Positions 3,376 through 64,000 of a stretch of DNA of 64,000 nt are shown one piece after another. The notes beneath the pieces were generated by a model, which was not told the DNA's origin, did not search any database, and saw nothing but the letters and a program-made list of their open reading frames with translations. The translations under genes and the position numbers were made by a program. The DNA comes from Antedon mediterranea. Taxonomy: Eukaryota > Animalia > Echinodermata. The DNA lies in assembly GCF_964355755.1 (NCBI RefSeq), contig NC_092679.1, forward strand, positions 17,591,432 through 17,655,431, given 5' to 3'. Each line of letters opens with the position of its first letter. Positions within the stretch are counted from its first letter, which is position 1.

Positions 3376-4463
3376 GTCAGAATTAACCATAATTTATATA
3401 TAGATGGTAATATTTATTATTAATTATTATTTCCTTAAACCATGCTTAACCGAATTAAATAACAACGTCATCATATTAGTATTATTATTTATATTGTTTG
3501 TTTTCATTGAGACAAAATAAATAACTTATCTCATTCTAATTTTATACATTCTTACATTTAACACGCATTGCTACGTGTGCGTTATGGTATTTTACCTCGA
3601 TTTTTCAATAGTAATTTCCTGTTATTTCAAACATCACACACAAACGTCGTGTACTTCCGATATTTTTGTGAAAATCATTACTCTTTCTATTATTTTCAAC
3701 AATGTGTACATTTTTAGTAGGATAGTAAACAACACAAGTATAGGCCTTTAATGCGTTTTGTGTATTTTTAAATATAGAATCTTGACAAGTTAAACTTACA
3801 TCAATAATGCTTAGATTTTAAAGACAGACGACAGATTTATTTTGTCTGAGTGATGTACATATTTATTTTTATATACAGTACTTCATTATGTTAATTATAT
3901 TAATTTAAATTAAATAAATCACTGTAATAACGTTGCAGGATTAATGACTAATTTGTTTGACTAAAGAAGAGTCTTTTTGAATTGTTGTTTTGATTATATA
4001 TAGAGGGCCCATAGATAATTATCATCTCCCCGCTGCGAAGGAACTGGAAAGGCCACTGTCTGTAAATGTTGAAATAAAAAAGAATAGGTCTAGGGCACCT
4101 CGTCTGTTCGGATCTAGGACTCCTGAAACGCGGGTGCCTATGTGTTTTATTGGTACTCTATACCTTCTCTATACTTATGGTTTTATAAACAAGGCTATAT
4201 ACATGGCTGCAGTCGCGTGCTCAAATTTAAGTTAGTGTTACCGACCGACCGACATAGTGAGCTGTAGAATAGGTGATATGAACAGGTTGGACTTATATGA
4301 GTACGATATCAGCGCTTTATCTTATATGGTTTAAGCAATCTTAGACATTACGTTTGTTTGTTTTACCATGTTTCTTATAGACACATATTTAAATATAATA
4401 TTCTTAATTACCTCTTGTTTCTGAAATTATTTGTTAAAATTGGTATTAAAAGTAAGCACCTAC

Positions 4464-4654
4464 CATTTCCATTCACCGTTTTCAGTAAACTTCAACGTAA
4501 AAATCATCTCCACCGCCAGTAAAACCACCGGTATAAGGAGCAGATAGTAGATCTGATCATCCTCTAAATCGGTCACTCTCCACGCGACCAAAACTCCATG
4601 TACAGCGAATAAAAGTCTCGCCACTACCGCTTTGATGAGAGATATTACAGACAT
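4464..4654 (-). CDS. TMEM26: TMEM26-like transmembrane protein, first coding exon (no further exons recognised; probably left of the window)
   Basis: MSVISLIKAVVARLLFAVHGVLVAWRVT...YYLLLIPVVLLAVEMIFTLKFTENGEWKW resembles the TMEM26 N-terminus (RLLFxxH..VWRV..LLxxE..TL..W). A GTAGGT donor follows TG at 4464/4463. Confidence 0.85.
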
Positions 4655-7600
4655 TTTGATTATTTACATTTAGTTAACTTAGGCATAGACCGCAATTTTC
4701 GAACACAATTAGCCTGTTCGTATAGTCTCCTTGTACAACAATCCTTTTGGTTATTCTAAAATACAATGCTAGAAACAGAAGTATTCCTTTACAAAGCTTG
4801 ATTAAAAAACTGATATAAAGTTAGTTTACTGCTTTCAGTACACAATTTAATCCCAAATTACGACTAGTTCCAATCTTGAAAAAGTTTCAGTTTAGAATTG
4901 GAATAATCACAATCCGATTTGCAGTTTCTTCGGCGCATTCATGGTTGTATTCGACAGAGAGTAATCGTGAAAGTGTGTGTGTGTGAGTTTTCCCATCACC
5001 GAGTCGTGACAAATATTTCTATTGATCAAAAATCCATGTGTCGGAAACGTCATCGGCTAAATCCTATAGGACAATCGTTTTTGTTGCTACGTTACGTGAT
5101 ACAATGGACAAATAGTTTGTTTTGTTGTAATGGTTCGTTGGTCTTATTCTTTTAAATGGATTTAGCAAGAATTATCATACAAAGTTGATGCACAGACGAA
5201 AGGCTAAAATGCTGTATTATCAATAAACACTTCATATCAGTTAAACTTTTCGTTATTTCGGATTGAATGTCAAATGTGAACGCAACGCAATGGAGTTGTT
5301 TTCAATTAATTGATAGCAAAATAATATTAATCACGAATTAAACTATAGTTTTCCATAAAGATAATGATCCAATTATACAGTATTAAGAAAGATCTTTAGC
5401 TATATAACTATAAGTTGTTTGTTACGGTGTAGGTTCAAAACTGTATTTCAACAATATAAGCTAAATATTTCGGCAAATATAGCGTTTCATACGTATAAAA
5501 AATCGAAACGCCGACTGGTGGACTACCCGTTTTATTAGTCTCATATTACTATGTGATTTTTTCTTAAATGCTGTAATATATTATATTGATATAGGCCTAA
5601 TTTCATTTTTATATATGTTTTAAGGATAACCATAAAGTTTTATTGAAGATAATTATTTTTTTTTTTGTGAAAAACCTCGATTGTAGAAAGTGACATGTAA
5701 TAATAATATTCAAGAATTCAAATAGAATGTGGATAGATTTATGCTAAGAAGGAAAATACAAATAAATAGTAGGGCGCGTTCAACAGGAGTTACACAGTGT
5801 GACGTCGTGACATGCTAACTCATAGGGACATGTAGAGAGACATGGGAAGTTCTTTCACTCCATGATCAACACAGTTTTGGTGGATTTTAGGTCAAAGCGA
5901 CGATATGCACAATTAGGTCGTAGGTCACAGGTAGTCACAGACCAAAACCTTCTTAATCTATTTATTTAACAGTAACTTAAGTGTGCAAAATGTGGTTTTT
6001 TTTTTACATTAAGCAATACAGACACATAGGGGGCGCTTGACTTCAACAACTGTACCTTCCAAAAGTATAGTATTTGTAATATATTACGTACTCCACAATA
6101 CTCAAATGTAGGTATTTGAAATTAAACACAAATAATGCACTAGTACAATAACAACGCTTGGTGACATCCTGTCAAGTTTTATTAATTGTTTCTTTATGTA
6201 ATTCCCGGCATGCTATTTCCTGCTGGAGTCATTGCCATTTCTTGAAACTTCTTGTTTTTGGCTGCTAACAGAAAATATTTACTAACTGATACAATACAAA
6301 CAAAATGCTCCAATATTTAATCTTTAATCATCTACTACGATGCAGACAAATTGTTGACAAATACAATTTGATCGAACGCAGATCGATATTAAAATACCAA
6401 GAAGTTGGATAATTACCAGCAGTTCATTTAATAGTACTATATCATACTTCTGTACAAACTACTATAAATTAATGGAAATACCCTTTACTGCATTTTCTTG
6501 TTTAACTTCGGTTTAAATTCTTCTTCAATTCAATTCCTGTCCTATGATTTGCATAATAGACAATTATGTCGTTCTGGGACCGCATCATAATACAATATAA
6601 AAATACCTCCAGAAGGTTACAAAAGCCATGACACATCATCTTTTGTTTTAACATACCTCTATATCCTTCCCTCTATATGCAGCAGATATTAGTAAACCAT
6701 TGACTTTGTATTTCTTTTTAACTCATTTATTCATGCTTTTTCCAGTGGAATGTACGGTTTTTACTGTATATGAAACTTACACACTTGGTTTTCATGTCTG
6801 TTTATTTTTTAAATATTCTAATTCAATTATACACCAATACTACAGTTCGCATTTGCATACGGTTTTAAAGCATCATCTAATATTTATTCAAATTAAATAG
6901 AAGTTTACGTTTATTTCTACAATGGTTCGTGTTATGATTAGACAAACATAATGCTAGAAGTAAAATATACACACTTGAAAGACTTTTTCGACAATAGAAA
7001 CGATAAACGAATTTGCCATTTAAACAGATGTTTAGTTTATTTATTGTTATAATTATAAATTACATAAATAGAAAATGCCTGTATGTATTATGAAAGTACG
7101 TTTTTTTTTATATTTTATTTATTTTTTTCTTTACATCTGAAGACTAAATATTCTGAATGGAAGTTTATTCAAGCATAACGACTTTGTTAGGAATGCTGAT
7201 AATATACAAATAATGAATGTTTATGAGTGTAATGGTACAAATAATGGCAGGAGGTGAATGATGAAAGGGTTATACTCAACGAGGCAAAGCCGAGTTGATA
7301 TACCTTTCGTCATTCACCAAATGCCATTATTTGTACCTTTACACGAATAAAAAACATTCAAGTAGTGTACATGGAGGCCTAGTCAGTCGTGGTTATAACA
7401 ATGGTTAACAATGGGGATAGTATAAGACAATAGAGTATATCATTTAACTAGAATTGTTATATAGATTTGTTATATATTAATATACATTATAATATAAAAT
7501 TAATAAATATTAAATAAAAATGATATGGTTATTTAGTTGCTTGTGATGAGAACAAATGGTTTACATTGGTTGAAGTCAATAGGTGTTATGTTTCGGATTA

Positions 7601-8349
7601 TAATACAATGGTTAACATAGGGTAAGGAAGTGAGACAATATAGTTTTTGTAAGATTTGAATTAGTCATGGATTCAATAAAGATGCACCTGGTTAATTAAA
7701 ACTAGTTAATTGAGGTTTTTGCTTGATGTATGCCGACATAATACAAAGACATAAGTTATTTGATCCGGATATTATAACAATGACTAAAACAAAAAGATAA
7801 GAATGAATAGTTTAAATAGCGTTTACAGGCAAAATATAGGCAAAATTGTAAGTATAAGTCAGATGTACAAATTACTGAAAAACAAATTACTAGGAAGTAT
7901 GAAACAATAGTTATTGTGTTTCGGGGCATATAACAATATATGTTAAAGGTGTCTTCCGACATATAATTAATACGGGGTATTTTATAACAAAGACAAAAAT
8001 AAAAAGAAGACTATAATGAAGTGATATAATAAGTATGTCTTGCTTGATCTTTGGCGACATAATCCAAAGACATAAGGCATTTTCTTCCGGATATTTAGGA
8101 TTTGAAAATAAAGGTTATTTAAGTATGTACAATTAAGTAAATAAAAGGTAATCTTCTGATGTCATGCATAAATTAATTTGTTATGTTTAAATATCGGGGG
8201 GGGGGGGTATTATTTGAAATTCTATGTCAGTGTTTTCAATTACATCGAAGTCACTCAAACTCTAGTACTAGTTCCAAAGTATTACCGTTACACGAGGTTA
8301 AAAGATTAATTCTAACGTGCATACCGGTAATGAACAATAATTTGAAAAC

Positions 8350-8806
8350 AGCAGTCTTAGCGGTAACGAGGAATTTTTGTTAGAAATTCTTGATGACAAC
8401 GATGAATTGGTAAGTTGAATCAATTTGTACAAGAAAAAAAAAAGAAATTTACGTATATTATTTTCCAAATGTTATTAAGATTTAATTTGTTCTGTCTGTT
8501 ACATGGGGTCTTGTTATTTAATTTTCAGATTCGATGTATAGAAGAGTTAATTGATGATCAGAACGAATTATGTAATGAAATGGTAAGTTACTATTTCTAT
8601 AAATTTATTTTTAAAATGGTAATAATATATGATATTTAGTCTAATATAAACAACATTTTGTATTACAGTACGGTATTTTGATTGAAAGTAGTAATAACGA
8701 AAGGGAAGAAACACTTCAATTAGAGAATGACATGGCAGTTGCAGAAATTTGCCGCATTGCAAGAAACAAAAGAGGTAATTTAGACGAAGAAGAAAATGAT
8801 TTATGA
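8350..8806 (+). pseudogene. Spliced small acidic protein gene fragment (left arm): exons ..-8409, 8529-8582, 8669-8806; 5' part disrupted or not identified
   Basis: GTAAGT donors at 8410 and 8583, and acceptors ttttcag (8528) and tattacag (8668), all phase 0. They join EEFLLEILDDNDEL|IRCIEELIDDQNELCNEM|YGILIESSNNEREETLQLENDMAVAEICRIARNKRGNLDEEENDL*. Upstream in-frame stops and no clear ATG. Confidence 0.55.
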
Positions 8807-8823
8807 GTATGATTGCACTTCGA

Positions 8824-8909
8824 CCAATGTTCCGACAGGAAATACAACAATGACAATTGGCTGAAACAAATTTAGTAAATGCCGAATGTAATCCTTTGAC
8901 TGTATATAA
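8824..8909 (+). promoter_or_regulatory. Putative Pol II promoter of the 233-aa ORF (CCAAT boxes and TATA)
   Basis: CCAAT at 8824, ATTGG at 8856 and TATATAA at 8903-8909, about 90 nt before ATG 8994. AATAAA at 9827-9832 follows the stop. Confidence 0.5.
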
Positions 8910-8993
8910 CTCTCGATTATTTTGTAATCTTTACCTCATTCTACAACGCTACAGCGCTCGACAAGACAGACCAAAAACCAACAACTAGTTACT

Positions 8994-9695
8994 ATGGTTT
9001 CCGTGATTGAAATCATTGATCTTACTATGGACTCTGATGTCGAAGAAGATGTTATATATATAAGCAGTGATTCGGAATTTGAAGACGATTTTACAGCAGA
9101 GGAGGAGGAAGAGATGAGGGAAGAGATGGGGGATATGACGTGTTTAATGGCGATTCAACCCCCACCTCCAATGAACGTTGATTTCAATAATGTATCTAAT
9201 ACTGAAGAAGACGAACATTATATATCGAGAATAATTTCTGAAGAGGAGAGGATTGTATACGACGACACGTCATCGGTAGTTGACTACCACCTATTTCTGG
9301 CAAGAAAAGCCGATGTAGAAGATGAGGTAGAAGATGGGGTGTTTGCGGAAGAGTACCTGAACCCTGTGCTGGAGGCGGAGATTAAGAAAGAAACTACCGA
9401 ACTTGAGTACAAAGAAATAATGAGAACAATTGAGAAGGTTTTCATAGAAGAATTTATATTCATTCTGAAGGACATGGTTGAACGTTATAACTTTCACGGC
9501 TCAAGATATGAACAACTCCTAACATTTTTTCGACCAATTCTGGCATTGAAACTTGTGGACAATAGCGCTACCCATTTTGAATGGGCGCTAAACTACTTTC
9601 ATTTACGTTGTATAAATGTTGATGCGTTTGCTAAAGCCATAAAGTTGATTACAAATGATTCAGAACTTTTTAATAAGATTCTTTACCAATTGTAA
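8994..9695 (+). CDS. Intact acidic 233-aa Polinton accessory protein with N-terminal SIM-like motifs (left-arm copy)
   Basis: Longest ORF class in the window, ATG start and single exon. N-terminus VIEIIDLT..VIYISSDSE, acidic middle, predicted helical C-terminus. Confidence 0.75.
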   Translation: MVSVIEIIDLTMDSDVEEDVIYISSDSEFEDDFTAEEEEEMREEMGDMTCLMAIQPPPPMNVDFNNVSNTEEDEHYISRIISEEERIVYDDTSSVVDYHLFLARKADVEDEVEDGVFAEEYLNPVLEAEIKKETTELEYKEIMRTIEKVFIEEFIFILKDMVERYNFHGSRYEQLLTFFRPILALKLVDNSATHFEWALNYFHLRCINVDAFAKAIKLITNDSELFNKILYQL

Positions 9696-9948
9696 TTTGT
9701 ACAAATTTAAAATAATATCTTAACACTTTTCTAATTAATGTTACATATTTTTATAATTCTTATTTCTTTTCGGTAAATTTATTATTATTATGGTTGTAAA
9801 TTATATTGAAATAGAATATGTGTTAAAATAAAGGTTGTGGTTTTTCTTTTAATAGCAACAACAACGAAAATGAATTTGATCTTTGCGTGTTATTTAAGTA
9901 TTTTATTTATTTTTTAAATTTTCATTTGGGTGAATGAGGGTAATGAGT

Positions 9949-10188
9949 ATGGATGAGTACTTAAGAAAAGTATATTACGATCCTAAGCATCCTGATAGTT
10001 TTGGTGGTGTGGACCGACTTTATCAAAATGTAAAATACGATTTAAATATTACCAAGAGACAAGTTCAAGACTGACTGAGCAAGCAAGATACATATACATT
10101 ACACAAATCCATTCAACGTAAATTCAAACGAAACTGGGTACTTGTAAGTGTTATTGATGAACAATGGGGAATGGATTTGGAAAAATAA
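9949..10188 (+). pseudogene. Polinton/Maverick retroviral-like integrase N-terminal remnant (left arm)
   Basis: Manual translation gives MDEYLRKVYYDPKHPDSFGGVDRLYQNVKYDLNITKRQVQD*LSKQDTYTLHKSIQRKFKRNWVLVSVIDEQWGMDLEK*. This fits the YYDP..SFGGV..LY / WL..QDTYTLHK / IDEQW..DL signature. Internal TGA at 10072-10074; truncated just after the first catalytic Asp. Confidence 0.88.
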
Positions 10189-10200
10189 CGTGTATAAAAT

Positions 10201-10345
10201 TTGATTCAGACAAACTGTTTGACTTTAAATTTCCAAAAATCAAAGGAAGTCAATTTTGAAATAGTTGGTAGCATGGTACAAGGAATCGGACTGGAAAAAA
10301 TAACAACAACTAATCCTAACAAAATAACCCGTAAACCAAAATCTC
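10201..10345 (+). pseudogene. Probable C-terminal fragment of Polinton protein-primed DNA polymerase B (left arm)
   Basis: CLTLNFQKSKEVNFEIVGSMVQGIGLEKITTTNPNKITR resembles the pPolB C-terminal pattern GfTLNf.nS..iNFe.vk.lV....kItv.NP.KItR. Recognised by eye only. Confidence 0.55.
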
Positions 10346-11449
10346 ACTCTCTACCATTCAAAAATGATGTAGCGATTTTTTCAAGCGGTATTGTCATGAA
10401 CGTATTGAAAAGAAAATAGTTTTATTGTCAATGATTTGTCAAGTGTTTTATTTTAATTTCAATTACTGTTGTATTGTATTTAGTTTTACCCGTTCATGTT
10501 GGCATGATCAATATTTGCTCAAACTCCATTTTATCGTTATGTTTGTAGTATTTTATAGATTCCCGATCATCGTAATAATGATATAACTAGAATTCGTAAC
10601 CGTGTGTTAGATTCCACGCGTATTATATACATATTGTCTTACTTTAATTCCTTCTCTCGTTATTCACCCGATGTAGTTTGATCAAACAATTGTACCTGAG
10701 CCTGAAAGGTTAGTTGTTATGGTACAAGGAATCGGCCCGGAAAATAATTTGTTTTCTTTTCTGTTAAATTATTATTATGTTTGTGAATTGTGTATTGCAA
10801 TAGATTTGTTTAATGAAATTAAATTAATTAGGCCTATGTTTTGACTTAATTTACTGTCAGTGTAAATTTTTTAAAGTAGTTTTCCTACTTTAATTCACGG
10901 TAAATTTATTTATCGACTTAATTTAATTTGTTTTCTTTTCTGTTGTTGTTAAATGTAATTGCAAACACACGTAATAAATGATTGTGATTATAAATATTCT
11001 GTTTACTTCTTTTAATTTTAAACAGTACAATAGATCTGTAATGTAAAGTTATATTTTATATATAATAAGTAATATTACAAAAATAAACATACAAAATGTA
11101 TAAAGCATAGATTAATTAAATTTAAATACAATTTCTTTATTTCAAAATGAATTTCATTTTCTACGTGTTTTCAATTTTAAATCTTTTAAGAAAGACACAA
11201 TACGTACTGCTAAAAAAATAAAACGCACACAAAAGAAAACAAATTTGAGACGCACGATATGTAACGACGGTTTCAATAAAAAGGCATATTATAAATGTAT
11301 TTTTACCAAATTTATAAAGTAAAGGGTTATTATTGAGAAATATACATTTTAGATAAATGATAACACATCTAAAATTAATTAGAGAGATCAATACAATATG
11401 GTGTTCATAATAATTTGTTTTGATGACTAGAGGAAACATCTGAAGACAT

Positions 11450-11885
11450 TCAACAAAAAACAAGCGTTAACACCATACCAGTCACTAAGAATGCTACTAC
11501 TCTGAAAAAAACATCTCCCTTCCAGCACAGAAACAAATTCTGAACGAAAATAAAAAATAAAAATAATTAGTAAACGAAACACGCGCATTATAAATAAAAT
11601 GAATAATTTAAGAAAAAAAAAAAGAAACATACTAACCGATTTATCGTCATTACGAAGTTCAAATAACGAAAACTTTTCCTTGAAAAATTCACAAGAGACA
11701 CGTTTTACATTTTCTAACTGCATTTCAGTGTCACATTGTTTCGCAACACATGTACATACAACGAGTCCTGTCACAAATCTGCCGACATTTATTTTTTTAT
11801 CGCTCATCATTTGTTCTAATACATAATACAGCGCTTCCGAAGAAATATCTTTACACAATTCTAACACATTAAAATTGTTTTCCAA
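11450..11885 (-). pseudogene. Bcl-2-family-like gene, 5'-truncated, two exons (11885-11637, 11539-11450), in the palindrome spacer
   Basis: BH1-like VLEQMMSDKKINVGRFVTGL. A GTTAGT donor at 11636 and a pyrimidine-rich acceptor ending CAG at 11540 splice in frame to NLFLCWKGDVFFRVVAFLVTGMVLTLVFC*, a C-terminal hydrophobic anchor. Confidence 0.7.
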
Positions 11886-12668
11886 CTTTTAAATTTAATT
11901 AATCTATGCTTTATACATTTTGTATGTTTATTTTTGTAATATTACTTATTATATATAAAATATAACTTTACATTACAGATCTATTGTACTGTTTAAAATT
12001 AAAAGAAGTAAACAGAATATTTATAATCACAATCATTTATTACGTGTGTTTGCAATTACATTTAACAACAACAGAAAAGAAAACAAATTAAGTTAAGTCG
12101 ATAAATAAATTTACCGTGAATTAAAGTAGGAAAACTACTTTTACAAATTTACACTGACAGTAAATTAAGTCAAAACATAGGCCTAATTAATTTAATTTCA
12201 TTAAACAAATCTATTGCAATACACAATTCACAAACATAATAATAATTTAACAGAAAAGAAAACAAATTATTTTCCGGGCCGATTCCTTGTACCATAACAA
12301 CTAACCTTTCAGGCTCAGGTACAATTGTTTGATCAAACTACATCGGGTGAATAACGAGAGAAGGAATTAAAGTAAGACAATATGTATATAATACGCGTGG
12401 AATCTAACACACGGTTACGAATTCTAGTTATATCATTATTACGATGATCGGGAATCTATAAAATACTACAAACATAACGATAAAATGGAGTTTGAGCAAA
12501 TATTGATCATGCCAACATGAACGGGTAAAACTAAATACAATACAACAGTAATTGAAATTAAAATAAAACACTTGACAAATCATTGACAATAAAACTATTT
12601 TCTTTTCAATACGTTCATGACAATACCGCTTGAAAAAATCGCTACATCATTTTTGAATGGTAGAGAGT

Positions 12669-12813
12669 GAGATTTTGGTTTACGGGTTATTTTGTTAGGA
12701 TTAGTTGTTGTTATTTTTTCCAGTCCGATTCCTTGTACCATGCTACCAACTATTTCAAAATTGACTTCCTTTGATTTTTGGAAATTTAAAGTCAAACAGT
12801 TTGTCTGAATCAA
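12669..12813 (-). pseudogene. Mirror copy of the probable pPolB C-terminal fragment (right arm)
   Basis: ORF 12595..12813 is identical in translation to 10201..10419. Confidence 0.55.
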
Positions 12814-12825
12814 ATTTTATACACG

Positions 12826-13065
12826 TTATTTTTCCAAATCCATTCCCCATTGTTCATCAATAACACTTACAAGTACCCAGTTTCGTTTGAATTTACGTTG
12901 AATGGATTTGTGTAATGTATATGTATCTTGCTTGCTCAGTCAGTCTTGAACTTGTCTCTTGGTAATATTTAAATCGTATTTTACATTTTGATAAAGTCGG
13001 TCCACACCACCAAAACTATCAGGATGCTTAGGATCGTAATATACTTTTCTTAAGTACTCATCCAT
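12826..13065 (-). pseudogene. Mirror copy of the integrase N-terminal remnant (right arm)
   Basis: Reverse complement of 9949-10188, including the same premature TGA. Confidence 0.88.
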
Positions 13066-13318
13066 ACTCATTACCCTCATTCACCCAAATGAAAATTTAA
13101 AAAATAAATAAAATACTTAAATAACACGCAAAGATCAAATTCATTTTCGTTGTTGTTGCTATTAAAAGAAAAACCACAACCTTTATTTTAACACATATTC
13201 TATTTCAATATAATTTACAACCATAATAATAATAAATTTACCGAAAAGAAATAAGAATTATAAAAATATGTAACATTAATTAGAAAAGTGTTAAGATATT
13301 ATTTTAAATTTGTACAAA

Positions 13319-14047
13319 TTACAATTGGTAAAGAATCTTATTAAAAAGTTCTGAATCATTTGTAATCAACTTTATGGCTTTAGCAAACGCATCAACATTT
13401 ATACAACGTAAATGAAAGTAGTTTAGCGCCCATTCAAAATGGGTAGCGATATTGTCCACAAGTTTCAATGCCAGAATTGGTCGAAAAAATGTTAGGAGTT
13501 GTTCATATCTTGAGCCGTGAAAGTTATAACGTTCAACCATGTCCTTCAGAATGAATATAAATTCTTCTATGAAAACCTTCTCAATTGTTCTCATTATTTC
13601 TTTGTACTCAAGTTCGGTAGTTTCTTTCTTAATCTCCGCCTCCAGCACAGGGTTCAGGTACTCTTCCGCAAACACCCCATCTTCTACCTCATCTTCTACA
13701 TCGGCTTTTCTTGCCAGAAATAGGTGGTAGTCAACTACCGATGACGTGTCGTCGTATAAAATCCTCTCCTCTTCAGAAATTATTCTCGATATATAATGTT
13801 CGTCTTCTTCAGTATTAGATACATTATTGAAATCAACGTTCATTGGAGGTGGGGGTTGAATCGCCATTAAACACGTCATATCCCCCATCTCTTCCCTCAT
13901 CTCTTCCTCCTCCTCTGCTGTAAAATAGGCACCAGTCATAGCTAGTATGTCTTCGTCTTCAAATTCTGAATCACTGCTTATATATATAACATCTTCTTCG
14001 ACATCAGAGTCCATAGTAAGATCAATGATTTCAATCACGGAAACCAT
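13319..14047 (-). CDS. Intact acidic 242-aa SIM-motif accessory protein (right-arm copy)
   Basis: Near-identical to 8994..9695, with an in-frame 27-bp extra segment and two amino-acid substitutions (V/L, S/I). Confidence 0.75.
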   Translation of the reverse strand: MVSVIEIIDLTMDSDVEEDVIYISSDSEFEDEDILAMTGAYFTAEEEEEMREEMGDMTCLMAIQPPPPMNVDFNNVSNTEEDEHYISRIISEEERILYDDTSSVVDYHLFLARKADVEDEVEDGVFAEEYLNPVLEAEIKKETTELEYKEIMRTIEKVFIEEFIFILKDMVERYNFHGSRYEQLLTFFRPILALKLVDNIATHFEWALNYFHLRCINVDAFAKAIKLITNDSELFNKILYQL

Positions 14048-14234
14048 AGTAACTAGTTGTTGGTTTTTGGTCTGTCTTGTCGAGCGCTGTAGCGTTGTAG
14101 AATGAGGTAAAGATTACAAAATAATCGAGAGTTATATACAGTCAAAGGATTACATTCGGCATTTACTAAATTTGTTTCAGCCAATTGTCATTGTTGTATT
14201 TCCTGTCGGAACATTGGTCGAAGTGCAATCATAC

Positions 14235-14695
14235 TCATAAATCATTTTCTTCTTCGTCTAAATTACCTCTTTTGTTTCTTGCAATGCGGCAAATTTCTGC
14301 AACTGCCATGTCATTCTCTAATTGAAGTGTTTCTTCCCTTTCGTTATTACTACTTTCAATCAAAATACCGTACTGTAATACAAAATGTTGTTTATACAGT
14401 ATTAGACTAAATATCATATATTATTACCATTTTAAAAATAAATTTATAGAAATAGTAACTTACCATTTCATTACATAATTCGTTCTGATCATCAATTAAC
14501 TCTTCTATACATCGAATCTGAAAATTAAATAACAAGACCCCATGTAACAGACAGAACAAATTAAATCTTAATAACATTTGGAAAATAATATACGTAAATT
14601 TCTTTTTTTTTTCTTGTACAAATTGATTCAACTTACCAATTCATCGTTGTCATCAAGAATTTCTGACAAAAATTCCTCGTTACCACTAAGACTGC
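14235..14695 (-). pseudogene. Mirror copy of the spliced acidic IxCxE gene fragment (right arm)
   Basis: Reverse complement of 8350-8806 with the splice sites retained. Confidence 0.55.
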
Positions 14696-15195
14696 TGTTT
14701 TCAAATTATTGTTCATTACCGGTATGCACGTTAGAATTAATCTTTTAACCTCGTGTAACGGTAATACTTTGGAACTAGTACTAGAGTTTGAGTGACTTCG
14801 ATGTAATTGAAAACACTGACATAGAATTTCAAATAATACCCCTCCCCCCCCCCCGATATTTAAACATAACAAATTAATTTATGCATGACATCAGAAGATT
14901 ACCTTTTATTTACTTAATTGTACATACTTAAATAACCTTTATTTTCAAATCCTAAATATCCGGAAGAAAATGCCTTATGTCTTTGGATTATGTCGCCAAA
15001 GATCAAGCAAGACATACTTATTATATCACTTCATTATAGTCTTCTTTTTATTTTTGTCTTTGTTATAAAATACCCCGTATTAATTATATGTCGGAAGACA
15101 CCTTTAACATATATTGTTATATGCCCCGAAACACAATAACTATTGTTTCATACTTCCTAGTAATTTGTTTTTCAGTAATTTGTACATCTGACTTA

Positions 15196-18100
15196 TCTAT
15201 ATATAAATTTACGTAAGGGCAAAATTCGGTAAATCGCGCCTTACTTCTAGAATTTTCACTCGATGGTATGTAAAGTTGGTTCGTACTTTCGGTACTGATT
15301 TTAACCGCCTGATGTAACCCTGTTTACTAATTAAATTGAGTTAAATAATTAGTTATTGACGATTAAAACGAATTTAGGTTAAACGATTTGCCCCAAATAG
15401 GGGTGTTTTCCGATCGTGGTATACACTGTCTAATGGATGTCCGTCTTGAAAAATACCCGCCAAAAAAATGCGAGGAGGCTTCGCATTTTTCTATCTCCTC
15501 CTACGATAATTGTTTTTAATTGCTGAAAACCGGTTGAACAGCTAGAGTACACCATCATAATGTTGAAGACAGGCCGATTTTCTTTAAAAAATACTATTTT
15601 GATAGATTTAATATACGATTATACAAATGTATTGATTTGCGATGAATGGAACATCCCAATCTCTCAGTCTGCCAGAGTTTGGTTTAACACAAGTACTGTA
15701 GGTAAATTTATGAGCCCTTGAACACATACGGTAGGTAAATATATGGGCCCTTTGAGAATAAACTTGCAATACTTTGACAATACTGTAAATACCTATTAAC
15801 TATTTTTGGTCCTCATTTGAATCGAGCATTTCTTAGAATGTTCGTACTGTTAGATGTAATATAAAAATATATACAAATAAACTTTATTACTGAGACTGTG
15901 GATAGGCTCTACTGTTAGATATACAAATAAACTTTATACTGACAGTTCCTTCTCAACGTTTGTATTAATTAATAATTACCAAAAATATAAACGTCGTAGT
16001 GGTGTATCGTGACATGTACTTTAATATTTCAATTGATTATGACAGTGATAGTTTTAACAAAGTATTAAATCGCAAATGTTTTAGGCCTACTGTATTTAGA
16101 GGTATATTATTTATAGGCCTATAAAACATGAACAAAATATTTCGTTACTCAGTGGATAAAGAATATATTTAAAAATTGTTCCTCTTTGTACCTATCCGCT
16201 TTCCCATCCCTCAACCCTAATGTTACATAGCGAGGAGGCTTCGCATTTTCTTATCTCCTCCTACGATAATTGTTTTTAATAGCTGAAAACCGGTTGAACA
16301 GCTAGAGTACACCATCATAATGTTGAAGACAGGCCGATTTTCTTTAAAAAATACTATTTTGATAGATTGCTAGAGTACACCATCATAATGTTGAAGACAG
16401 GCCGATTTTCTTTAAAAAATACTATTTTGATAGATTTAATATACGATTATACAAATGTATTGATTTGCGATGAATGGAACATCCCAATCTCTCAGTCTGC
16501 CAGAGTTTGGTTTAACACAAGTACTGTAGGTAAATTTATGAGCCCTTGGTTTAACACATACGGTAGGTAAATATATGGGCCCTTTGAGAATAAACTTGCA
16601 ATAGGTTCGGAAAATGTTAAAAACCAATTTCTATTATTTGAATCGGTAAACAGTTTCCATTTATTATACATTGATAATGAAACATGAAATATTCCTATTT
16701 ATGTCCCTCGAGGTTCATTACAATTTATATTTAGTAGTCCCACGGACTTCATCTTAGCCACTCCCCCGAGTTCTAAGGCCAAATTTATGATACCCTACTT
16801 TCTATGTAAGTTTAGTTACAGTTAGTTCTTGACGATAATACAACGAATTTAGGTTACACCCTTCGGCCGCGAAAACGTTTCTGTACAAATATGATACCGA
16901 TTGGCTTTATTTCATTCAACAGCGACCATAATCTCGCCAATTACAGGATAGATAAACTATTTTATTATTGATGTGCTTATAAATTAAGACTCATGTAAAC
17001 AGCTTGATTACATCATTTTACAGACAAACGAAACTTTTAAACCTACTGTTTCAATAACTGAGTATAATACTGTATACGTTTTCATAAGTAAGTGCATATA
17101 CATTTTCGTGTTTTCATTGACGAGATTGTAATAGTAACTTCAGTAACTATTACAGTACTTATTTATTATACGATACAAGACAATTGTATCTGACAGGTAC
17201 GTACATTATTCTAAAAAATAAGTCTAGATAGATCCCTTAGGCGTCATAAATCACAGGCCAACAAATCAGTACTCATGACAGAAATTCGACCCAGTTTGGT
17301 TCACACAAATGTTTACAGGAATTTCAACACCACAACCGATGATTTGCCCTAAATATTTAGGTAGACTACAGTTTAATTTTTCACTGAATAGGAGCTTGCA
17401 TTTCCGATTTTCATTTCGCAGAATGTCTAGGTCTATTTATTTAGTTTGGTTCTTATAATATATAAATACAATCAACTTTATTACTGCGGTTCCATCACCA
17501 CCACCACGTGTCGCCCAATTCCCGTACATACATTTCCATTTCTCCCTAATTTCTTTAATCTATATATAAATTTACGTAAGGGCAAAATTCGGTAAATCGC
17601 GCGTTATTTCTAGAATGTGTACTCGATGGTATATAAAGTTGGTTATAATCTCGGTACTGATTTTAACCACCTGATGTAACCCTGTTTACTAATTAAATTT
17701 AGTTAGATAATTAGTTATTGACGATTAAAACGAATTTAGGTTCAACCATTTGCCCCAAATAGGGGTGTTTTCCGATCGTGGTATACACTGTCTAATGGAT
17801 GTCCTCATGAAAAATACCTGTACACAATAATACGAGGATACTTCGCATTTTCCTATCTCCTCCTACGATAATTGCTTTTAATAGCTGAAAACCGGTTGAA
17901 CAGCTCGAGTAGAGTATCATAATGTTGAAGACAGGCCGATTTTCTTTAAAAAATACTATTTTGATAGATTTAATATACGTTTATACAAATGTATTGATTT
18001 GCGATGAATGGAACATTCCAAATTATTTGGTTTAACCATGCTTGCATACCTCCATGATTTAACACAAGTAGGTCAATTTATGGGCCCTTTGAGAATAAAC

Positions 18101-18965
18101 ATAAATAGTATTGTAAAGCTATACAATACTGTAAATAGGTATTAACCACTTTTGATAGCCATTTGAATCGCAAATTTCTTATTGTGTGCGTTGGTAGGCC
18201 TACTGTTTATTATAATATAAACAAATATACTAATAAACTTTATTACTGTGAGTGTGGGTAGCCCCTACTTTTAGATTATAAACACATAATAATATAATAC
18301 TTTATTACTGACAGTTGCTTCACAACGTTTGTATTAATTAATAATTACAAAAAAATATAAACGTCGTGGTGGTGTATCGTTACATGTACTTTACTATTTC
18401 AATCGACTATGACAGTGACAATTTTAACAGTTATTAAATCGGAAATGTTTTACTCTATTTAGTGTTATGTTATTTATAGGCCTATTAAAAAAAAAACCCA
18501 ACCCTCAATAATGTTAGATACAAAATACAAATTGGGTTTGTTTAAACATTTGGACTCATTTTGTGAGAAGTTTCTCTTTTGGAAGTAATTCGCACGGTGC
18601 TAATTTTGGTTGACTACATAAATACATAAATAAATGTTTTATAGTCATGCGGTACGTAGGCCTACATTTTGAAATCGCCAGTTTTTTTACGCTGAAATTA
18701 CTATGTATTCGATAACCATATGTGGGCACGACCTAGATGGTACGCGAGCGAAGCGAGCGTACCATCTAGTCCACATAAATTAATTGTCCTTTATGGAATT
18801 CAGTATTGGTTTTGTTGTCTCTATTTCTGAATACCCCAATTAGGGGGACACTTCCGTTTTTGTTTAGTGTCCCAAAAAAGTCCCCGTCCGTGGATTCTAC
18901 TGTATTCGAGAACCATCTGTGAGCACCCCTAGATGGTACGCGAGCGAAGCGAGCGTGCCATCTAG
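15196..18965 (+). mobile_element. Non-autonomous Helitron inserted in the right arm
   Basis: Starts TC at 15196 and ends CTAG at 18965 after the hairpin gatggtacgc-gagcgaagcga-gcgtgccatc. It is inserted between A and T with no TSD; the left arm shows the empty site (acttatacttac on the reverse strand). Confidence 0.9.
17559..18769 (+). mobile_element. Second Helitron of the same family nested inside the first
   Basis: The same 5' end tctatatataaatttacgtaagggc occurs at 17559 after an A, and the same hairpin plus CTAG ends at 18769 before a T. Confidence 0.85.
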
Positions 18966-20265
18966 TACTTACAATTTTGCCTATATTTTGCCTGTAAACG
19001 CTATTTAAACTATTCATTCTTATCTTTTTGTTTTAGTCATTGTTATAATATCCGGATCAAATAACTTATGTCTTTGTATTATGTCGGCATACATCAAGCA
19101 AAAACCTCAATTAACTAGTTTTAATTAACCAGGTGCATCTTTATTGAATCCATGACTAATTCAAATCTTACAAAAACTATATTGTCTCACTTCCTTACCC
19201 TATGTTAACCATTGTATTATAATCCGAAACATAACACCTATTGACTTCAACCAATGTAAACCATTTGTTCTCATCACAAGCAACTAAATCACCATATCAT
19301 TTTTATTTAATATTTATTAATTTTATATTATAATGTATATTAATATATAACAAATCTATATAACAATTCTAGTTAAATGATATACTCTATTGTCTTATAC
19401 TATCCCCATTGTTAACCATTGTTATAACCACGACTGACTAGGCCTCCATGTACACTACTCATTCATTATTTTTTTTATATAACATCTAAATAGATTCCTG
19501 TCATTTGAATCAAATTAAAGGTAGCCCTAGCCTGGCCTTCATTTAATTCACATTGGCCTAGCCTAATAATAACAGACCTAGTACACAATAGGTGGCGCTG
19601 TTGAAGTTCAAAGGCAATAGTCCGTAAAAAACAAAATATTTCCAAACGCGAAAACGCGAAAAGATTTTTTTTCCGTACACGAAAAAAAGTACTAGTAAAC
19701 AATCGTTTAATAGTGCGTACTATTGAACGCCATGTGACCCACATTCGTTCAATCAATTGACAGGAATCTATTTAGGTGTTATATAATATCCTTTATAAGT
19801 ATCCTATAAACTTGATTAAAGGGTAGCTCCGGCTTCTACAGAGTCAACTTCTTTGGATCGACAAAAAGAATATTAATTTTTATCTTATCGTAATATTTAT
19901 GTAGCACCATTTTTCCGTTCTGCTTAACCGCTGACGAAAAACAAGTGAGGTTTTTTTTTTATCAATGTTGTTCCAAACTTTTATATTTTATAATAAACAA
20001 TAGAAAGTAGTCCGGAACTACTTTTTAAGCATCCTTTTTTTTTAAACTTGATTAATTACATAATAATACTTTCATGATATTAGTAAAACATTGAAGTAGC
20101 TAAATTAGCATTGTCACCATAGAGATTATAATGTTGTAACTAGTGACAATTCAAGCGTGGCACAATGCTGGTAATTAATTTAATAATGAATATTATACAA
20201 TATAGTGACTGTTAGTTGAATGGAGAGTGCAACAGTCAACGAATAGCAATATTCGTTCCATTTAA

Positions 20266-21179: not shown

Positions 21180-23258
21180 TCAATAAAAATTGGAGGAAAT
21201 AAAAATGAATGTATTTCTAAATTCGTTTTGTGTATCAGAAGATGCGACACGACCACGTCTGCTTACAGTAAGAAAGCGCCCTCGTTTTACTTGGTCGCTA
21301 GAGGGCTCATTTGCAGGTCGATCGCGAATACCAATTCTGAATTGTATTAATGATTGAAAAGAAACGAAACATGAGCGCCGACTGAAGCTTTCTCGCCACA
21401 AAATATCGAAATTTTCTTCACACAGAATGTTTGACTCTGTATTCTGAAAAAAAAAAAGAGATATATTTATTATTATGCATCCTATATAATTTTAAAGTCA
21501 GCAATATTGGTCTAATGAATGTGTTTTTGAAAGATTCGAATAGTTTTCAAGCTGGTTTAACTATTTAGCTTGATTCACTTCTCATTGTTCTCATGAGATG
21601 AAACATTTTATAATAAAATTGTAAGGTATTTAAAATTTACTGGCTTTTTCCTAAATCATTTGATTATTATTTCTTCATCATACATAAGTTATGAGATTAA
21701 GATAGATACGTCTGTATATCAACTAACATTTGATTATTGTTTAATTGTTTCTGTTTGAAGATGAAAACTCATTTATATTTAGTGCTGGATTGACCTTTAT
21801 CGATTTTCGGTAACAACAGGCAAGAAAGTATTGAATATAAAGACACATGGATACTTACATTTCTAGCTGAAATCTTGCCATGTTTGTCCATGGACAGATA
21901 AAGACCAGTATCTGCACCCCGGATAATAAACAAACTAGGTCCAACAGCAAATGTTGTCACAAGAACTGAAATCAAATTTGATTTTTATATTTATTTTTTG
22001 TTAATATATATATTTAGGCAAATTGCCAAGGATAACCATAAGCGAATTCATTCACTATCCTTCTTAAAGGTTGTTCACAAGACAAACATAAACAAAGTCT
22101 TATTACAGGAGGTATTTGGGAGTGACGTTGTAATTTGTCATTATAAAACTCCTGACATTATGAACCCAGGACCCTTAAATTTGTAGCCAAGCATCATAAC
22201 CACCAAGCATCATAACCACCAAGCATCATAACCACCAAGCCACAACTTCACTATTTAGATTGGTCAGTTAAGCCTGGTTTCCATAAAATCGCTACACGAC
22301 AGAGCGTAGCGATTCTGTGGAAACGCTAGAATTTATCGGGGATCTAGTACGCGAGCGCTAAATATTCTTTGGTACGCGTATACTATTCATCGCCGACAAA
22401 ATCGGCAAAGTTGAACATGGTTGAACTTTGCCGATTTGACTGCGATGAATCGGGGAGCCTTCCCGATTGCGTCGGCGACATCCGTGCGTGTAGCGATTTT
22501 AATGGAAACGCTGTAGCGATTTTAATGGAAACCAGGCTTTACCAATTAGGTTAGAACCATACAGACATTATAGTGAACTAGGACTATTTTGTAGTTATAT
22601 AGTAGGTCTATTCTAAAACTGGAGGAGTATACAGTAGGTCTAAATTAGAACTGGTATTAGCGTAATAGTATACAATTTTAGTATGTATAGGATTAGGCCT
22701 AGTCCAGCTACTGTAAATGTAACTGGGGAAATAACCTGCGACTTGCAGCCTACTGGGCTGAATTGCAGAACTTCATTAGTACTTCTGAAGGGTGGATTAC
22801 CAACAAAACAGTCAGTTACTTAAAATAGTACAACTAAGCCAACTGAATAGCCAGTAGTGTGTAACGCCTTATTTTTCTGACTAACAACCGGATAGAAGAG
22901 TATTAGTATTATTATTTCCTGAAAAAACCACAGATAGTTCTAAGTAAATCAAATTCATTTGTCACTCACCGTATTTATCTTTACAGTTGGTAGTTCCACT
23001 GACACGGCCTTCAGGACCAATACGAAGAAAGAAACCATTTCGTGATAAAATCTTTTTCACAAATTGGTGGTTTTCGTTCACATTTGTAATATTGGAACCC
23101 ATCTCTTTACTTTCTGAATTTAGTCCGTCGTTGAAGTAATCAACGATTGAGTCGTTCATTTCACTTTGGACAGTTGGCTCAACCAAGAAACTTACTGCTT
23201 CTTCGATTCCCCAGCTGATAAAAGCCCACAACAAAACTATTTTCAGTACTGAATTCAT
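21180..23258 (-). CDS. Divergent secreted FGF-family protein, copy A; exons 23258-22970, 21965-21859, 21443-21180 (about 219 aa)
   Basis: Signal-peptide-like N-terminus; KILSRNGFFLRIGPEGRVSGT; IIRGADTGLYLSMDKHGKI; phase-1 and phase-0 GT-AG introns around a 107-nt middle exon, as in FGF genes. Confidence 0.88.
22271..22538. mobile_element. Harbinger-type MITE in FGF copy A intron 1
   Basis: TIR agcctggtttccat / atggaaaccaggct with TTA on both sides. Confidence 0.75.
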
Positions 23259-24344
23259 CTTTCATACAGTTCAAAAGTTCTGAAAAAAAGAGGAAACGTT
23301 GATACTGAGATAATAGGTAAAAAAAGATGTAATTTTTGTTTATTTGGTATGCATAAACAACAAAAGATAAAGATAAACGGGTATTGTAATTTTAAGTTAT
23401 TATGCTAATTAATTTGATTTAACTTTCCCGTGTAACTTTGTGGAACAGAAATATAATTGTAATTGGGAAAAAATCTGTGTCTGCATAGCTAGGTACTAAA
23501 GGCTCTAAAGACTTTACCACACTAAACATACTGCAATGCAGATCTACATAGCTACTATAGTAAAATATTGATATCATTGGACACCTCATACCATTCAGGG
23601 GACGTTGCTATTAAGGGGACACTTTTCACGAAACCAATCAAGTGAGTGAAATGTATTATACAGACAACCACTAAACCTACGATAGGGATGCCGAATACGC
23701 TTTGCGTGAGAGCTAAATAGACTCACCGTGCTCATGACAGTTGTAGTTAATTCACCAGCTTTTTGTACATATAAAATATGGAAAATAAAGCATCTGAATG
23801 ATAGACAAAAAAACCGGATACGTAACAGCAGGCTAAGACGAATGTGGACAAAGCCTTGACCAATACAGACCGGTTGATGTGGAAGGTGCGCAAGGACATG
23901 CTCAGGAAATGTCAGTGTGGGAGGTTATTAATTGATACAAGGAATAGATAAGTACTTAGCTTCTTGCTCAATACACGGAAAACAATCAATGCTAAAACAA
24001 AGTCTACAGCTGCAGGTTTTTCAATCGAGTAATCTGTATTTCCACAATATTTCATAGCAACTGATTTTCATTTGTTCATTGATTCCGTCATCACTGACGG
24101 TTCGAGACTGCAATGATGGATCGCAAATTAGATCGGTCTTCAGTAAGTTGATATATTATGTGTGTATAGGTTGTCCAATTAATTTACTTTTGTCGCAACT
24201 GATTTGACAAAAGATGCATTTTCTTGTATTGTTTTGTTAAAGTTTTAAAAAATGGAAAATATTGTTGCAGTATAAATTGTCTTCTCAAAAGGAAGAATGA
24301 TTTGAATTATTCTTAATTTATATGTCAGTGGAACTTTTCCGAAA

Positions 24345-43236: not shown

Positions 43237-45054
43237 AGCCTGGTTTCCATTTAAATCGCTACACGCGCAGATCAACTTTGCCGATTTTGTCGGCGATGAA
43301 TCGTATTCGCGTACCAAAGAAAATTTAGCGCTCGCGTACTAGATCCCCGATAAATTCTAGCGTTTCCATAGAATCGCTACGCTCTGTCGTACGTGTAGCG
43401 ATTTTATGGAAACCAGTGGCCGTATTCACCAATCTCACTTAGGCTAAGGGAAATACTTACCCTTAAAATTTAAGAATTCCCTTAACAAAGGGAAACACTT
43501 AAGGTGTATTCACAAATGAGTTAAGGGATTCACTTACCTAAGGAAAAACACTTAATTTAAGGGTAAAACTTAAGGGTAAAAATAATCATAAATATTCATG
43601 AGTTTCCCCATTGTCCAATCACAGAGAGGATTTAATTCCCTTATGGTCCAATCACTTTCCTCTCTAAAACTAATTTGCATATTTAAAAAAAGAGTAAGGG
43701 GTTGGGGGGACGGGGAGGATGGAGAGAAAAGTGTGTGGACGATGATCAATAAAAAGAAAATGGCAGTCAAAACAAAAACAAGTAAATGAATATTATTCCT
43801 AGACTAATTTGTATGAGGATCAAGCAAAATAGGTCTAGCCTAGATGCTAATAACAAACCAACATTCTGTGTAGGCCTAAACCTGTCTGTATTGAGGCATA
43901 TGCATCCGAGGGTGGTTACTGGGCAGACCAACAGGGAGCCTAGCATCTCTACCTAGCCTAGGCCTAGCCTACTACTAGAATGGGGGATAATTTCTATTAA
44001 CAACGAAATGGGAAGCCATCTTTCACGAAAATCCACTCAAAACAAAAAATAAATGAATATATAGGCCTAGATAGACTAATTTGTATAGTGAAGATCAGCA
44101 AAAAAGGTCTAGGCCTACTCAAACCAAACATGAATCCTAGTCTGGTTAGTGGGCACACCAACAGGGGGCCTAGCATCTCTACCTAGCCTAGAGGGGCTAT
44201 CTACAAGTAGGCATAATACTCGCACATACAGAATCGCCAGCACAACCAAGTTACTGAATAGTTTAGAGAACTTTTAAGGGACCTCGAAGGTCCCTTAAAA
44301 GTTAAGGGGAAATAGACCAAGTTAGGGTTTCCCTTAACCTTCAACCCTTTGTGAATACCACTTAAGTGAAACCCTTAATATTTTCTTGATTTAAGGGAAA
44401 TTCTTAGGATTTAAAGTTCCCTTAACTATTCAGACCTTGACGATTCTGTATGTGCTATGCCTACTTGCAGATAGCCACAGTCTAGGCTAGGTAGAGATGC
44501 TAGGCCCCCTATTGGTCTGCCCACTAACCAGCCTAGGATTCATGTTTGGTTTGAGTAGCATTTAGACCTTTTTTGCTGATCCTCACTATACAAATTAGTA
44601 TATGCCTATATATTCATTTATTTTTTTTGTTTTGACTGCCATTATTTTCGTGGAAGATGGCTTCCCATTTCGTTGTAATAGAAATTAGCCCCATTCTCTA
44701 GTAGGCTAGGTAGAGATGCTAGGCCTCTGTTGGTCTTCCCAGTAACCTGCCTAGGGTGCATATGCCCCAATACAGACAGGTTTAGGCCAGCTACACAGAA
44801 TGTTGATTTGTTAGTATATATAAGCTAGACCTATTTTTCTTGATCCACAATTTAGTCTAGGTCTAATAGGCCTATTCATTCACTTGCTTTTGTATTGACT
44901 GCTATTTTCTTTTTATTGATCATCGTCCACACACTTTTCTCTTCATAGGTAAGTGAATCCCTTAACTCATTTGTGAATACCCCTGGAATTCTTAAATTTT
45001 AAGGGTAAGTATTTCCCTTAGCCAAAGTGAGATTGGTGAATACGGCCACAGGCT
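43237..45054. mobile_element. Copy of the 22271-22538 MITE family, split within its right TIR by a foldback element
   Basis: agcctggtttccat at 43237 ... atggaaaccag|insertion|caggct. Confidence 0.7.
43417..45048. mobile_element. 1.6-kb foldback-like non-autonomous DNA transposon with CAG TSD
   Basis: cag|tggccgtattcaccaatctcactt ... aagtgagattggtgaatacggcca|cag, with long diverged inverted arms and no coding capacity seen. Confidence 0.85.
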
Positions 45055-45056
45055 TT

Positions 45057-45574
45057 ATAGTCCAGTAAAATATCACCTTCACCATTGCATAACGTTAGTA
45101 GTCAACGAGATTCTCACCGTAGGTTCTAAACATTATGTAAAGATCATTTATTGATGTTGCGTCGCGTAAAAGTTGGGATTTGTGGAGAAAATGAAGTTTT
45201 TATACGCAGTTTTTGCTTCCTTTCGTCGTGGTTTGTTTTCATCGAAAAATGACGTCATGGGGCATAAGTGAATGACACGCCATTGTCGACATTTGCGTTC
45301 GTATTAAAAAGTGAATTTTAAATGTACGAATATGGTATTAATTATCTGTATTACATTGTATTATTATGTATCACATATATAACAAGTCATTTTGATAAAA
45401 AATAAGTCAAATAAATATGAAAAACAAAGGAAAATTGTGATTGTAATTGTGATCCCAACTTTTACGCGACGCAACATCAATAAATGATCTTTACATAATG
45501 TTTAGAACCTACGGTGAGAATCTCGTTGACTACTAACGTTATGCAATGGTGAAGGTGATATTTTACTGGACTAT
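45057..45574. mobile_element. MITE with near-perfect TIRs of about 120 bp
   Basis: atagtccagtaaaatatcacc...aaagttgggat is mirrored by atcccaacttt...ggtgatattttactggactat. Confidence 0.85.
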
Positions 45575-63915: not shown

Positions 63916-64000
63916 CTTCTTCTATTTTCAAATCAAATTATCTGAAAAAATGTATTCAAGTTTTTTCCCAGTGTAAAGCTTTGTCTACACTATCAAACTA

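Follow-up and report, generated by a model that had tools for sequence, protein, structure and literature searches.

The Bcl-2 mimics encoded by DNA viruses restrain cell death of the Bax/Bak type, and in adenoviruses, herpesviruses and poxviruses the corresponding genes are not known to contain introns. Homologues of Bcl2 and IAP have also been observed in adintoviruses (Starrett et al. 2021, PMC8502044), and the Bcl2 label appears three times among the Beta-PolB maps in Supplementary Figure S2 of that paper. The string "splic" is absent from its main text, and Supplementary Figure S1 may show similar cases. The adintovirus integrase type combines an rve domain with a C-terminal chromodomain (PMC11071296). 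Mavericks (Polintons) are recognized by (AGT)2 ends and 6-bp duplications, and the core genes of intact vertebrate Mavericks are intronless (PMC8097293). Nematode Mavericks carry intron-bearing cargo, namely wasp proteases and krma kinases (bioRxiv 10.1101/2022.07.12.499685), and BCL-2 is mentioned in a planarian LTR element (PMC6431247). In nearly all animal bcl-2 genes an intron lies directly after the codon for the BH2 tryptophan and the transmembrane tail is encoded by the next exon (PMC7527217, PMC8998228); in pro-survival bcl-2 genes the BH1-to-BH2 helices are held in one exon, and the Bax/Bak layout has 4-6 exons (PMC8998228). The literature search, with most subscription papers outside its scope, found no paper on Bcl-2 in Polintons or adintoviruses beyond PMC8502044 and none devoted to palindromic non-autonomous Polintons.

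The locus described here lies within a stretch of 64,000 nucleotides (referred to as the window) from the echinoderm Antedon mediterranea (contig NC_092679.1, positions 17,591,432 to 17,655,431), wherein part of a Bcl-2-like gene occupies the centre of a palindromic element. With a probability of roughly 0.78, this remnant is a 5′-truncated, likely dead accessory gene of the Bcl-2 family, with a predicted intron and tail anchor, carried on a non-autonomous Polinton/Maverick (adintovirus-type) element and left at the centre by a fold-back copying accident.

Architecture of the palindromic element

The element spans positions 7361-19459 of the window (12,099 bp), and its features are listed in Table 1. 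Its inverted arms at 9088-11126 and 11888-13926 are separated by a spacer of 761 nt, and the Bcl-2-like frame is cut at the arm boundary (11887/11888). When the Helitron is set aside, an 8,329-bp palindrome remains that consists of two 3,766-bp arms around a 761-bp centre. The arms are 99.7% alike; the palindrome is taken to be real and young because 8 substitutions and 3 indels distinguish its inner arms, and 1 letter its terminal inverted repeats (TIRs).

Table 1. Features of the element and of its Bcl-2-like centre (window coordinates)
Feature	Position	Strand	Remarks
Target-site duplication CATTCA, left, 6 bp	7355..7360	.	
Left TIR, 494 bp	7361..7854	+	AGTAGT start (Maverick/Polinton end motif)
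Left inner arm	7855..11126	+	TIR-arm-centre order common to other family copies
Tentative gene X, left copy	8346..8803	+	Approximate, mirrored from right copy and arm alignment
Acidic ORF, left copy, 233 aa	8994..9695	+	Two SIM-like motifs; 27-nt in-frame deletion relative to right copy
Decayed N-terminal rve/chromodomain integrase fragment, left copy	9949..10182	+	Mirrored coordinates
3′ region of Bcl-2-like gene	11127..11449	-	AATAAA at 11141; + strand AATAAA also at 11217, 11275
Predicted last exon, 29 residues	11450..11539	-	Hydrophobic tail-anchor-like end, then stop
Predicted intron, 97 nt, phase 0	11540..11636	-	Sequence signals; PMC7527217, PMC8998228
Surviving Bcl-2-like coding exon	11637..11887	-	About helices 3-7; degenerate BH1 "NVGR"; 5′ end cut by arm boundary
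Right inner arm, inverted copy of left arm	11888..15195	-	8 substitutions and 3 indels over 3.27 kb
Decayed integrase N-terminal fragment, right copy, 78 codons	12832..13065	-	One internal stop
Acidic ORF, right copy, 242 aa	13319..14047	-	Two SIM-like motifs; open
Tentative spliced gene X, right copy	14235..14700	-	Bounds approximate; exons short and acidic, IxCxE in one of them at 14517
Non-autonomous Helitron in right arm	15196..18965	+	5′ TC, 3′ hairpin and CTAG
Right TIR	18966..19459	-	1 difference from left in 494 bp
Target-site duplication CATTCA, right, 6 bp	19460..19465	.	

The Polinton-type parent proposed by the initial annotation is borne out by the AGTAGT repeats, which carry the Maverick end motif, by the 6-bp duplication and by an rve integrase fragment in each arm. 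This fragment is 56-81% identical to the N-termini of six proteins with a Pfam rve domain, four of which also have a chromo domain (E down to 3e-33), and no counterpart was found when it was compared with viral contigs. Between 6500 and 20500 there is no open reading frame (ORF) over 264 codons, and no PolB, ATPase, protease or capsid match to Pfam was obtained among the element frames scanned; the element is therefore regarded as a non-autonomous derivative and not an intact Polinton.

Helitrons are defined by a 5′ TC and a 3′ CTRR with a subterminal hairpin, and they insert without a target-site duplication (PMC6544945). The 3,770-bp insertion at 15196-18965 has such ends: an A precedes TCTATATA at one junction and the hairpin and CTAG are followed by T at the other, so that the insertion sits between A and T. 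It explains the entire asymmetry of the element. As the Helitron is likewise unique DNA, in the right arm, the Bcl-2-like gene is not the sole unique cargo that the initial annotation had made of it. The Helitron contains a tandem duplication of 0.95 kb (83.6%) and repeats its terminal hairpin once more at about 18697-18770.

The insertion site of the element lies within a palindromic host repeat of high copy number (window 7200-7360 and 19460 onward). In one public sequencing run (X12), contigs carry this host repeat uninterrupted at 7360, which represents an empty site; by eye, 27 of 30 letters match the right flank. Elsewhere in the window, nested short inverted repeats at 43272-45574 suggest another fold-back element, and the minus strand holds, at about 21200-23300, 46900-47350 and 61400-63950, three host genes related to one another, whose exons are FGF-like and whose starts resemble signal peptides. 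These match Pfam FGF at E 0.035 and 0.11 only, and may form a tandem FGF cluster.

Two further genes may be recognized in each arm. The acidic ORF is open in both arms while the adjoining integrase has decayed, and it holds the motifs IIDLT and VIYISSDSE, called SIM-like after the SIM consensus. Its structural model (pLDDT 53) is helical in the C-terminal half; no Pfam or NCBIfam family and no fold match was found for it, and none of 396 homologue candidates held. The tentative gene X has GTAAGT donors, and in each of four runs its summed depth is lower than elsewhere in the arm; some members of the family may lack it or carry a diverged form. The adintovirus "Oncoid" (E1A-like) proteins are characterized by LxCxE, usually with a CK2 site, by CR1 and by paired CxxC (PMC8502044). 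As the six frames of 11127-15196 contain no strict LxCxE (one IxCxE occurs at 14517), gene X does not conform to this definition, and the CR1 pattern was found only outside ORFs. An apoptosis, cell-cycle and SUMO module had been envisaged for the parent virus. The case for it is weak: "cell-cycle and SUMO modulation", drawn from SIM-like motifs and IxCxE with no strict LxCxE and no homologue or fold for the SIM-like ORF, stays a guess from short motifs.

The Bcl-2-like remnant and its predicted tail exon

The BH1-like segment MMSDKKINVGRFVT, noticed from the letters alone, belongs to a minus-strand frame, open between 11888 and 11430. Its assignment to a Bcl-2-like gene is upheld by the 84-residue part 11888-11637, which matches Pfam PF00452 (Bcl-2) at E 3e-5 with 24.9 bits, a score below the gathering cut-off of 31.4. 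Exon residues 7-69 align with profile positions 21-86 of 100 (66 of the 100 positions, the query being a fragment), and among the 28 window frames scanned the match is confined to the exon frame and its read-through version. In BH1, which reads NVGR, the Asn, Gly and Arg are retained and the Trp of NWGR is replaced. The GGW of BH2 was not found at the exon end; since many viral Bcl-2 mimics are without clear BH motifs, this lowers the case for a canonical family member and not that for a Bcl-2 fold.

Structural comparisons point in the same direction at low strength. In the ESM Atlas, Bcl-2 clusters rank first (0.91 and 0.90), with a recognition value of 2229 that falls under the 2300 mark and counts as weak support; the Atlas and BFVD lists include poxviral, herpesviral and E1B-19K clusters. 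The AlphaFold single-sequence model of the exon consists of four helices with a mean pLDDT of 47. When this low-confidence model was compared with the PDB by Foldseek, BFL-1/A1 was the top entry (E 0.6, probability 0.82), the nearest structural entries being A1/BFL-1, Mcl-1 and Bcl-xL, and by title 36 of the 45 rows listed are Bcl-2-fold entries in what is a redundant library. Against BFVD the same poor model retrieved a gammaherpesvirus Bcl-2 at the top (E 0.67). The Foldseek check that had been proposed thus places BFL-1/A1 and herpesviral Bcl-2 first, but yields no significant entry: among the rows listed none reaches E 0.001, the top Bcl-2 rows being at E 0.6 or more. VIA-align gave no Z of 8 or more, and one Bcl-2-fold entry (GIV66, Z 5.1) at rank 49 of 50.

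Sequence searches with the exon were largely silent. There was no Bcl-2 match among PDB sequences by phmmer (TBP appeared at E 0.7 or more), among 1.84 billion representative proteins or in NCBIfam; none of six candidates held in a word-index search of 5.8 billion clusters for longer homologues, and none of ten stretches from viral contigs. A sushi-repeat protein, the sole match in the 1.84-billion-protein search, was rejected as spurious. A three-sequence profile matched A1 and Mcl-1 in the PDB (best E 0.0017), and as two of its three rows are NWGR-bearing ORFs from a metagenome locus (L022, see below) this is not independent support for the window exon. The Bcl-2 identity of the predicted product rests on one significant profile match, several concordant weak results and gene structure.

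The GT-AG intron at 11636-11540 that the initial annotation removed is likewise predicted here, with phase 0 and strong acceptor signals. It begins with GTTAGT, ends with TTCAG and lies between codons; the acceptor is the most pyrimidine-rich of the 28 AG sites in the centre, and a branch-like CTAAT is located 27 nt upstream of it. At 20% GC, the intron is poorer than the exons on either side of it (33% and 37%). Of 62 GT sites, 8 are equally good as donors, the predicted one among them, so its choice is set by the frame and not by strength. Removal of the intron restores the predicted terminal transmembrane helix that had been described, a 17-residue hydrophobic stretch (mean hydropathy 2.25) directly before the stop. 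In an acceptor control over the whole window (66 frames), 1 of 23 equally strong acceptors yields a terminal exon of 20-45 residues with such a tail, under thresholds that were chosen after seeing the case.

The exon ends 15 residues past the last Pfam-matched residue, where 14 profile positions remain. With the PF00452 profile presumably ending at the BH2 Trp, the predicted intron would lie within about one residue of the ancestral BH2 intron position, though GGW is lost. This proximity to the cellular intron suggests an old capture, at the DNA level and not via mRNA, of the putative gene from an animal host. The unbroken exon across these helices would fit the pro-survival gene layout better than that of Bax/Bak with its 4-6 exons. 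In a diverged copy from run X3, 61 letters replace 29 at 11591-11621, inside the predicted intron, and a contig from run X9 is 30 letters longer over the Bcl-2-like gene; the length change among copies appears to fall within the intron. Among the contig joints listed for the runs compared, none corresponds to the predicted intron, which speaks neither for nor against splicing.

Copies elsewhere and the origin of the centre

Part of the stretch is present in 18 of the 20 public sequencing runs listed, from 10 studies, and six of these runs were compared with the window. Contigs from three of four runs (X1, X5 and X3, three studies) match the centre to exactly 11887 and then continue into non-arm DNA for 255, 255 and 81 letters; that of the fourth run, X9, also stops matching at 11887, with 18 letters left. 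The join of the left arm to 11127 is found in X1, X5 and X3 as well, and in X1 the TIR is joined directly to the arm end. These contigs identify the left half, in the order TIR, arm and centre, as the shared family form and the 11887/11888 join as derived; among the contig pieces listed, none bridges it. The boundary at 11887 is thus a real cut, in agreement with the initial annotation, which had placed the cut exactly there. An 824-nt contig from X5 spans the point at which the integrase is cut, so the integrase deletion predates the window copy, and a 1,377-nt contig from X3 (36 differences in 307 letters) departs from the window sequence at 12834, as a longer relative would.

In X1 the depth of the centre bins is 488-681 compared with 33 for a 2,771-nt flank contig; summed depth does not equal copy number, yet a contrast of this size shows that the Bcl-2-like centre is clearly not a single-copy host locus. 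A captured host sequence absent from related Polintons had been named as an outcome that would speak against a viral gene; the centre is instead multi-copy, judged by the depth in X1, and in three runs copies continue upstream. At least 6 letter differences among copies fall in the two exons, and among the differences listed, 5 of 6 being non-synonymous, no recent purifying selection is visible on the predicted coding sequence. Two runs labelled as other organisms (X5 and X11) cover the element with little or no cover of the host flank at 4457-7026, from which horizontal spread is not claimed, as a coverage hole proves nothing.

An integrase profile search of metagenome contigs gave 34 related loci, most of 1-3 kb. 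Within the 265 ORFs scanned there (all 264 of at least 90 residues and one of 86, a set in which short or spliced genes would be missed), Bcl-2 was recognized at 1 of the 34 loci, L022, at 5603-5944 (Pfam Bcl-2 E 2.5e-4; TIGR00865 E 2.6e-6). This ORF resembles the window exon over BH1 only (9 of 20 residues), and the locus therefore indicates that the cargo type recurs and not that the genes are orthologous. L022 shares with the window a related integrase (51% over a 35-residue second piece) and Bcl-2-like ORFs nearby, one of them convergent with the integrase; it differs in that its ORFs are short, apparently unspliced, have a canonical NWGR and occur in both of the 539-bp inverted repeats around a capsid/protease-like block. 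Of full-length copies in sister Polintons, for which the initial annotation had advised a search, there are thus partial signs in the contigs of X1, X5 and X3 that run past 11887, and L022 is the single related integrase locus with a Bcl-2 ORF. The L022 repeats (122-654 and 5589-6125, 95%) flank a degenerate Polinton-like block with an integrase and with penton-, hexon- and protease-like frames, the last three named by resemblance, and each Bcl-2-like ORF points inward. Beside other related integrases there are BIR (IAP) domains (L009 2427-2738 and L015 7677-8096), IAP being the other anti-apoptotic cargo of PMC8502044, and TBP, Fic and collagen-repeat domains (L016 180-740, L005 181-705 and L031 3-822, respectively).

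Three other explanations of the remnant have to be weighed. That palindrome and cut are an assembly artefact, made from fold-back chimeric reads, is extremely unlikely: the near identity of the arms and the fact that long palindromes are a known source of mis-assembly would invite this suspicion, but the arms are set apart by their substitutions, their indels and a properly ended Helitron, and a single site distinguishes the TIRs. The 6-bp duplication is the same at both ends, at several positions where the arms disagree one arm stands alone and other runs carry the letter of the other arm, and the X12 contigs show the flanking host repeat uninterrupted at 7360. It is also very unlikely that the truncated gene is functional in the window copy, with the palindrome selected to carry it. 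Translation from a Met pair at 11810, where an ATG-started frame exists, or splicing into the AG at 11887-11886 would then yield a short membrane-anchored helix-5/6 protein, and neither the predicted intron nor the last exon nor the poly(A) signal is damaged. The AG is not among the best acceptors, however, its surroundings being AT-rich without a pyrimidine tract, and no Bcl-2-like frame was seen in the upstream arm among the frames scanned; as an acceptor for an arm exon it was dropped, since contigs run past 11887 into non-arm DNA, which makes the junction a cut. A Bcl-2 fold without its N-terminal helices has, as a matter of general knowledge, no BH3-binding groove, and the three listed differences that all covering runs share but the window copy lacks are all non-synonymous. 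The window remnant, which is without these helices, is probably dead.

The remaining alternative, passive capture of a host bcl-2 piece that never served the element (Pack-MULE-like cargo) and is multi-copy only because the element is, must be considered improbable, though less so than the other two. In its favour are the host-like character of the predicted intron and its closeness to the conserved BH2 site, the lack of introns in the core genes of intact vertebrate Mavericks (PMC8097293), the intron-bearing host cargo of nematode Mavericks (bioRxiv 10.1101/2022.07.12.499685), and the exon differences listed, 5 of 6 of which change the residue and give no sign of recent purifying selection. 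Against this, the protein is far from cellular Bcl-2, with no NWGR or GGW and no match in 5.8 billion clusters or 1.84 billion representatives, the frame, splice signals and tail anchor are intact, and Bcl-2 accessory genes recur in Polintons. A recent capture would account for this combination less well than a long history as a coding viral gene.

The fold-back copying accident can be outlined as follows. An ancestral Polinton would have taken up an animal-host bcl-2 gene as DNA and kept the BH2 intron while the protein diverged; by analogy, the uncut protein would have been tail-anchored in mitochondrial or ER membranes, likely restraining death of the Bax/Bak type during element replication. 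An internal deletion, which is seen in other runs, cut the integrase after about 78 codons and may have founded the short multi-copy family without core genes, in which the apparent order is TIR, gene X, SIM-like ORF, integrase stub and the convergent Bcl-2-like gene. Polinton replication is modelled as protein-primed, end-primed synthesis. Such synthesis would have reached 11887, switched template and turned back to copy the 3,766 bp it had made first, thereby restoring a second TIR, with the mirror arm replacing the 5′ part of the gene and the far end. The 8.3-kb palindrome integrated with a 6-bp duplication, for which an integrase from another element would be needed, and the Helitron and a few independent mutations evidently accumulated in the arms later. 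Given the contigs that run past 11887 and the shared left join, the central location needs no selective explanation and is most likely a fold-back by-product; the meaning that had been attached to it falls away, as the centre is whatever lay between two fold-back breakpoints.

A wider and speculative proposal, which is unlikely, would see in the short parent family the satellite of an autonomous Polinton virus. Having lost all genes for replication and capsid, the family would retain nothing but genes for control of the host: one for a SUMO-binding acidic protein, one for a spliced IxCxE protein, and a Bcl-2 with the ancestral animal BH2 intron. It would exist as many copies in several related hosts and would form copy-back palindromes, comparable to defective-interfering genomes in linear DNA viruses, to be fixed in the germline by a helper integrase.

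Comparison with described systems

The locus adds one more case to the animal Polintons with Bcl-2-like genes and fits the notion of Polintons as real viruses that manage host cell death, while the position of the predicted intron, close to that of the BH2 intron in cellular genes, speaks for uptake from an animal in the form of DNA and not of mRNA. Comparison with uncut copies locates the fold-back breakpoint to a single base, which would make the element a clean example of how a palindromic non-autonomous Polinton originates. The suspicion that such accessory genes had already been reported proved justified by the adintovirus Bcl2 and IAP homologues of PMC8502044: the cargo type is already in print, the window copy is a broken gene, and the field is unchanged.

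Like the window gene, the adintovirus Bcl2 of PMC8502044 is Bcl-2-like accessory cargo of an element whose integrase is of the rve type; the window gene differs in that it is predicted to be spliced, is 5′-truncated and resides in a non-autonomous palindrome without polymerase or capsid genes. With the viral Bcl-2 mimics (adenovirus E1B-19K and the herpesvirus and poxvirus vBcl-2 proteins) the window shares a divergent Bcl-2-like sequence on a DNA-virus-related genome, yet with none of them individually is there a significant match in sequence or structure. Cellular Bcl-2, Bcl-xL, Mcl-1 and A1 correspond to its predicted structure in having one BH1-to-BH2 exon, a phase-0 intron at BH2 and a transmembrane tail in the last exon (PMC8998228, PMC7527217), whereas the window gene has NVGR for NWGR and no recognizable GGW, is missing the BH4/BH3 part in this copy and lies on a mobile element. 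Nematode Mavericks (bioRxiv 10.1101/2022.07.12.499685) are unlike the window in that they carry other protein families, are largely complete and are shown to have undergone horizontal transfer; in common with it, their spliced cargo genes lie near the Maverick end, between TIR and integrase, and are probably host-derived as DNA.
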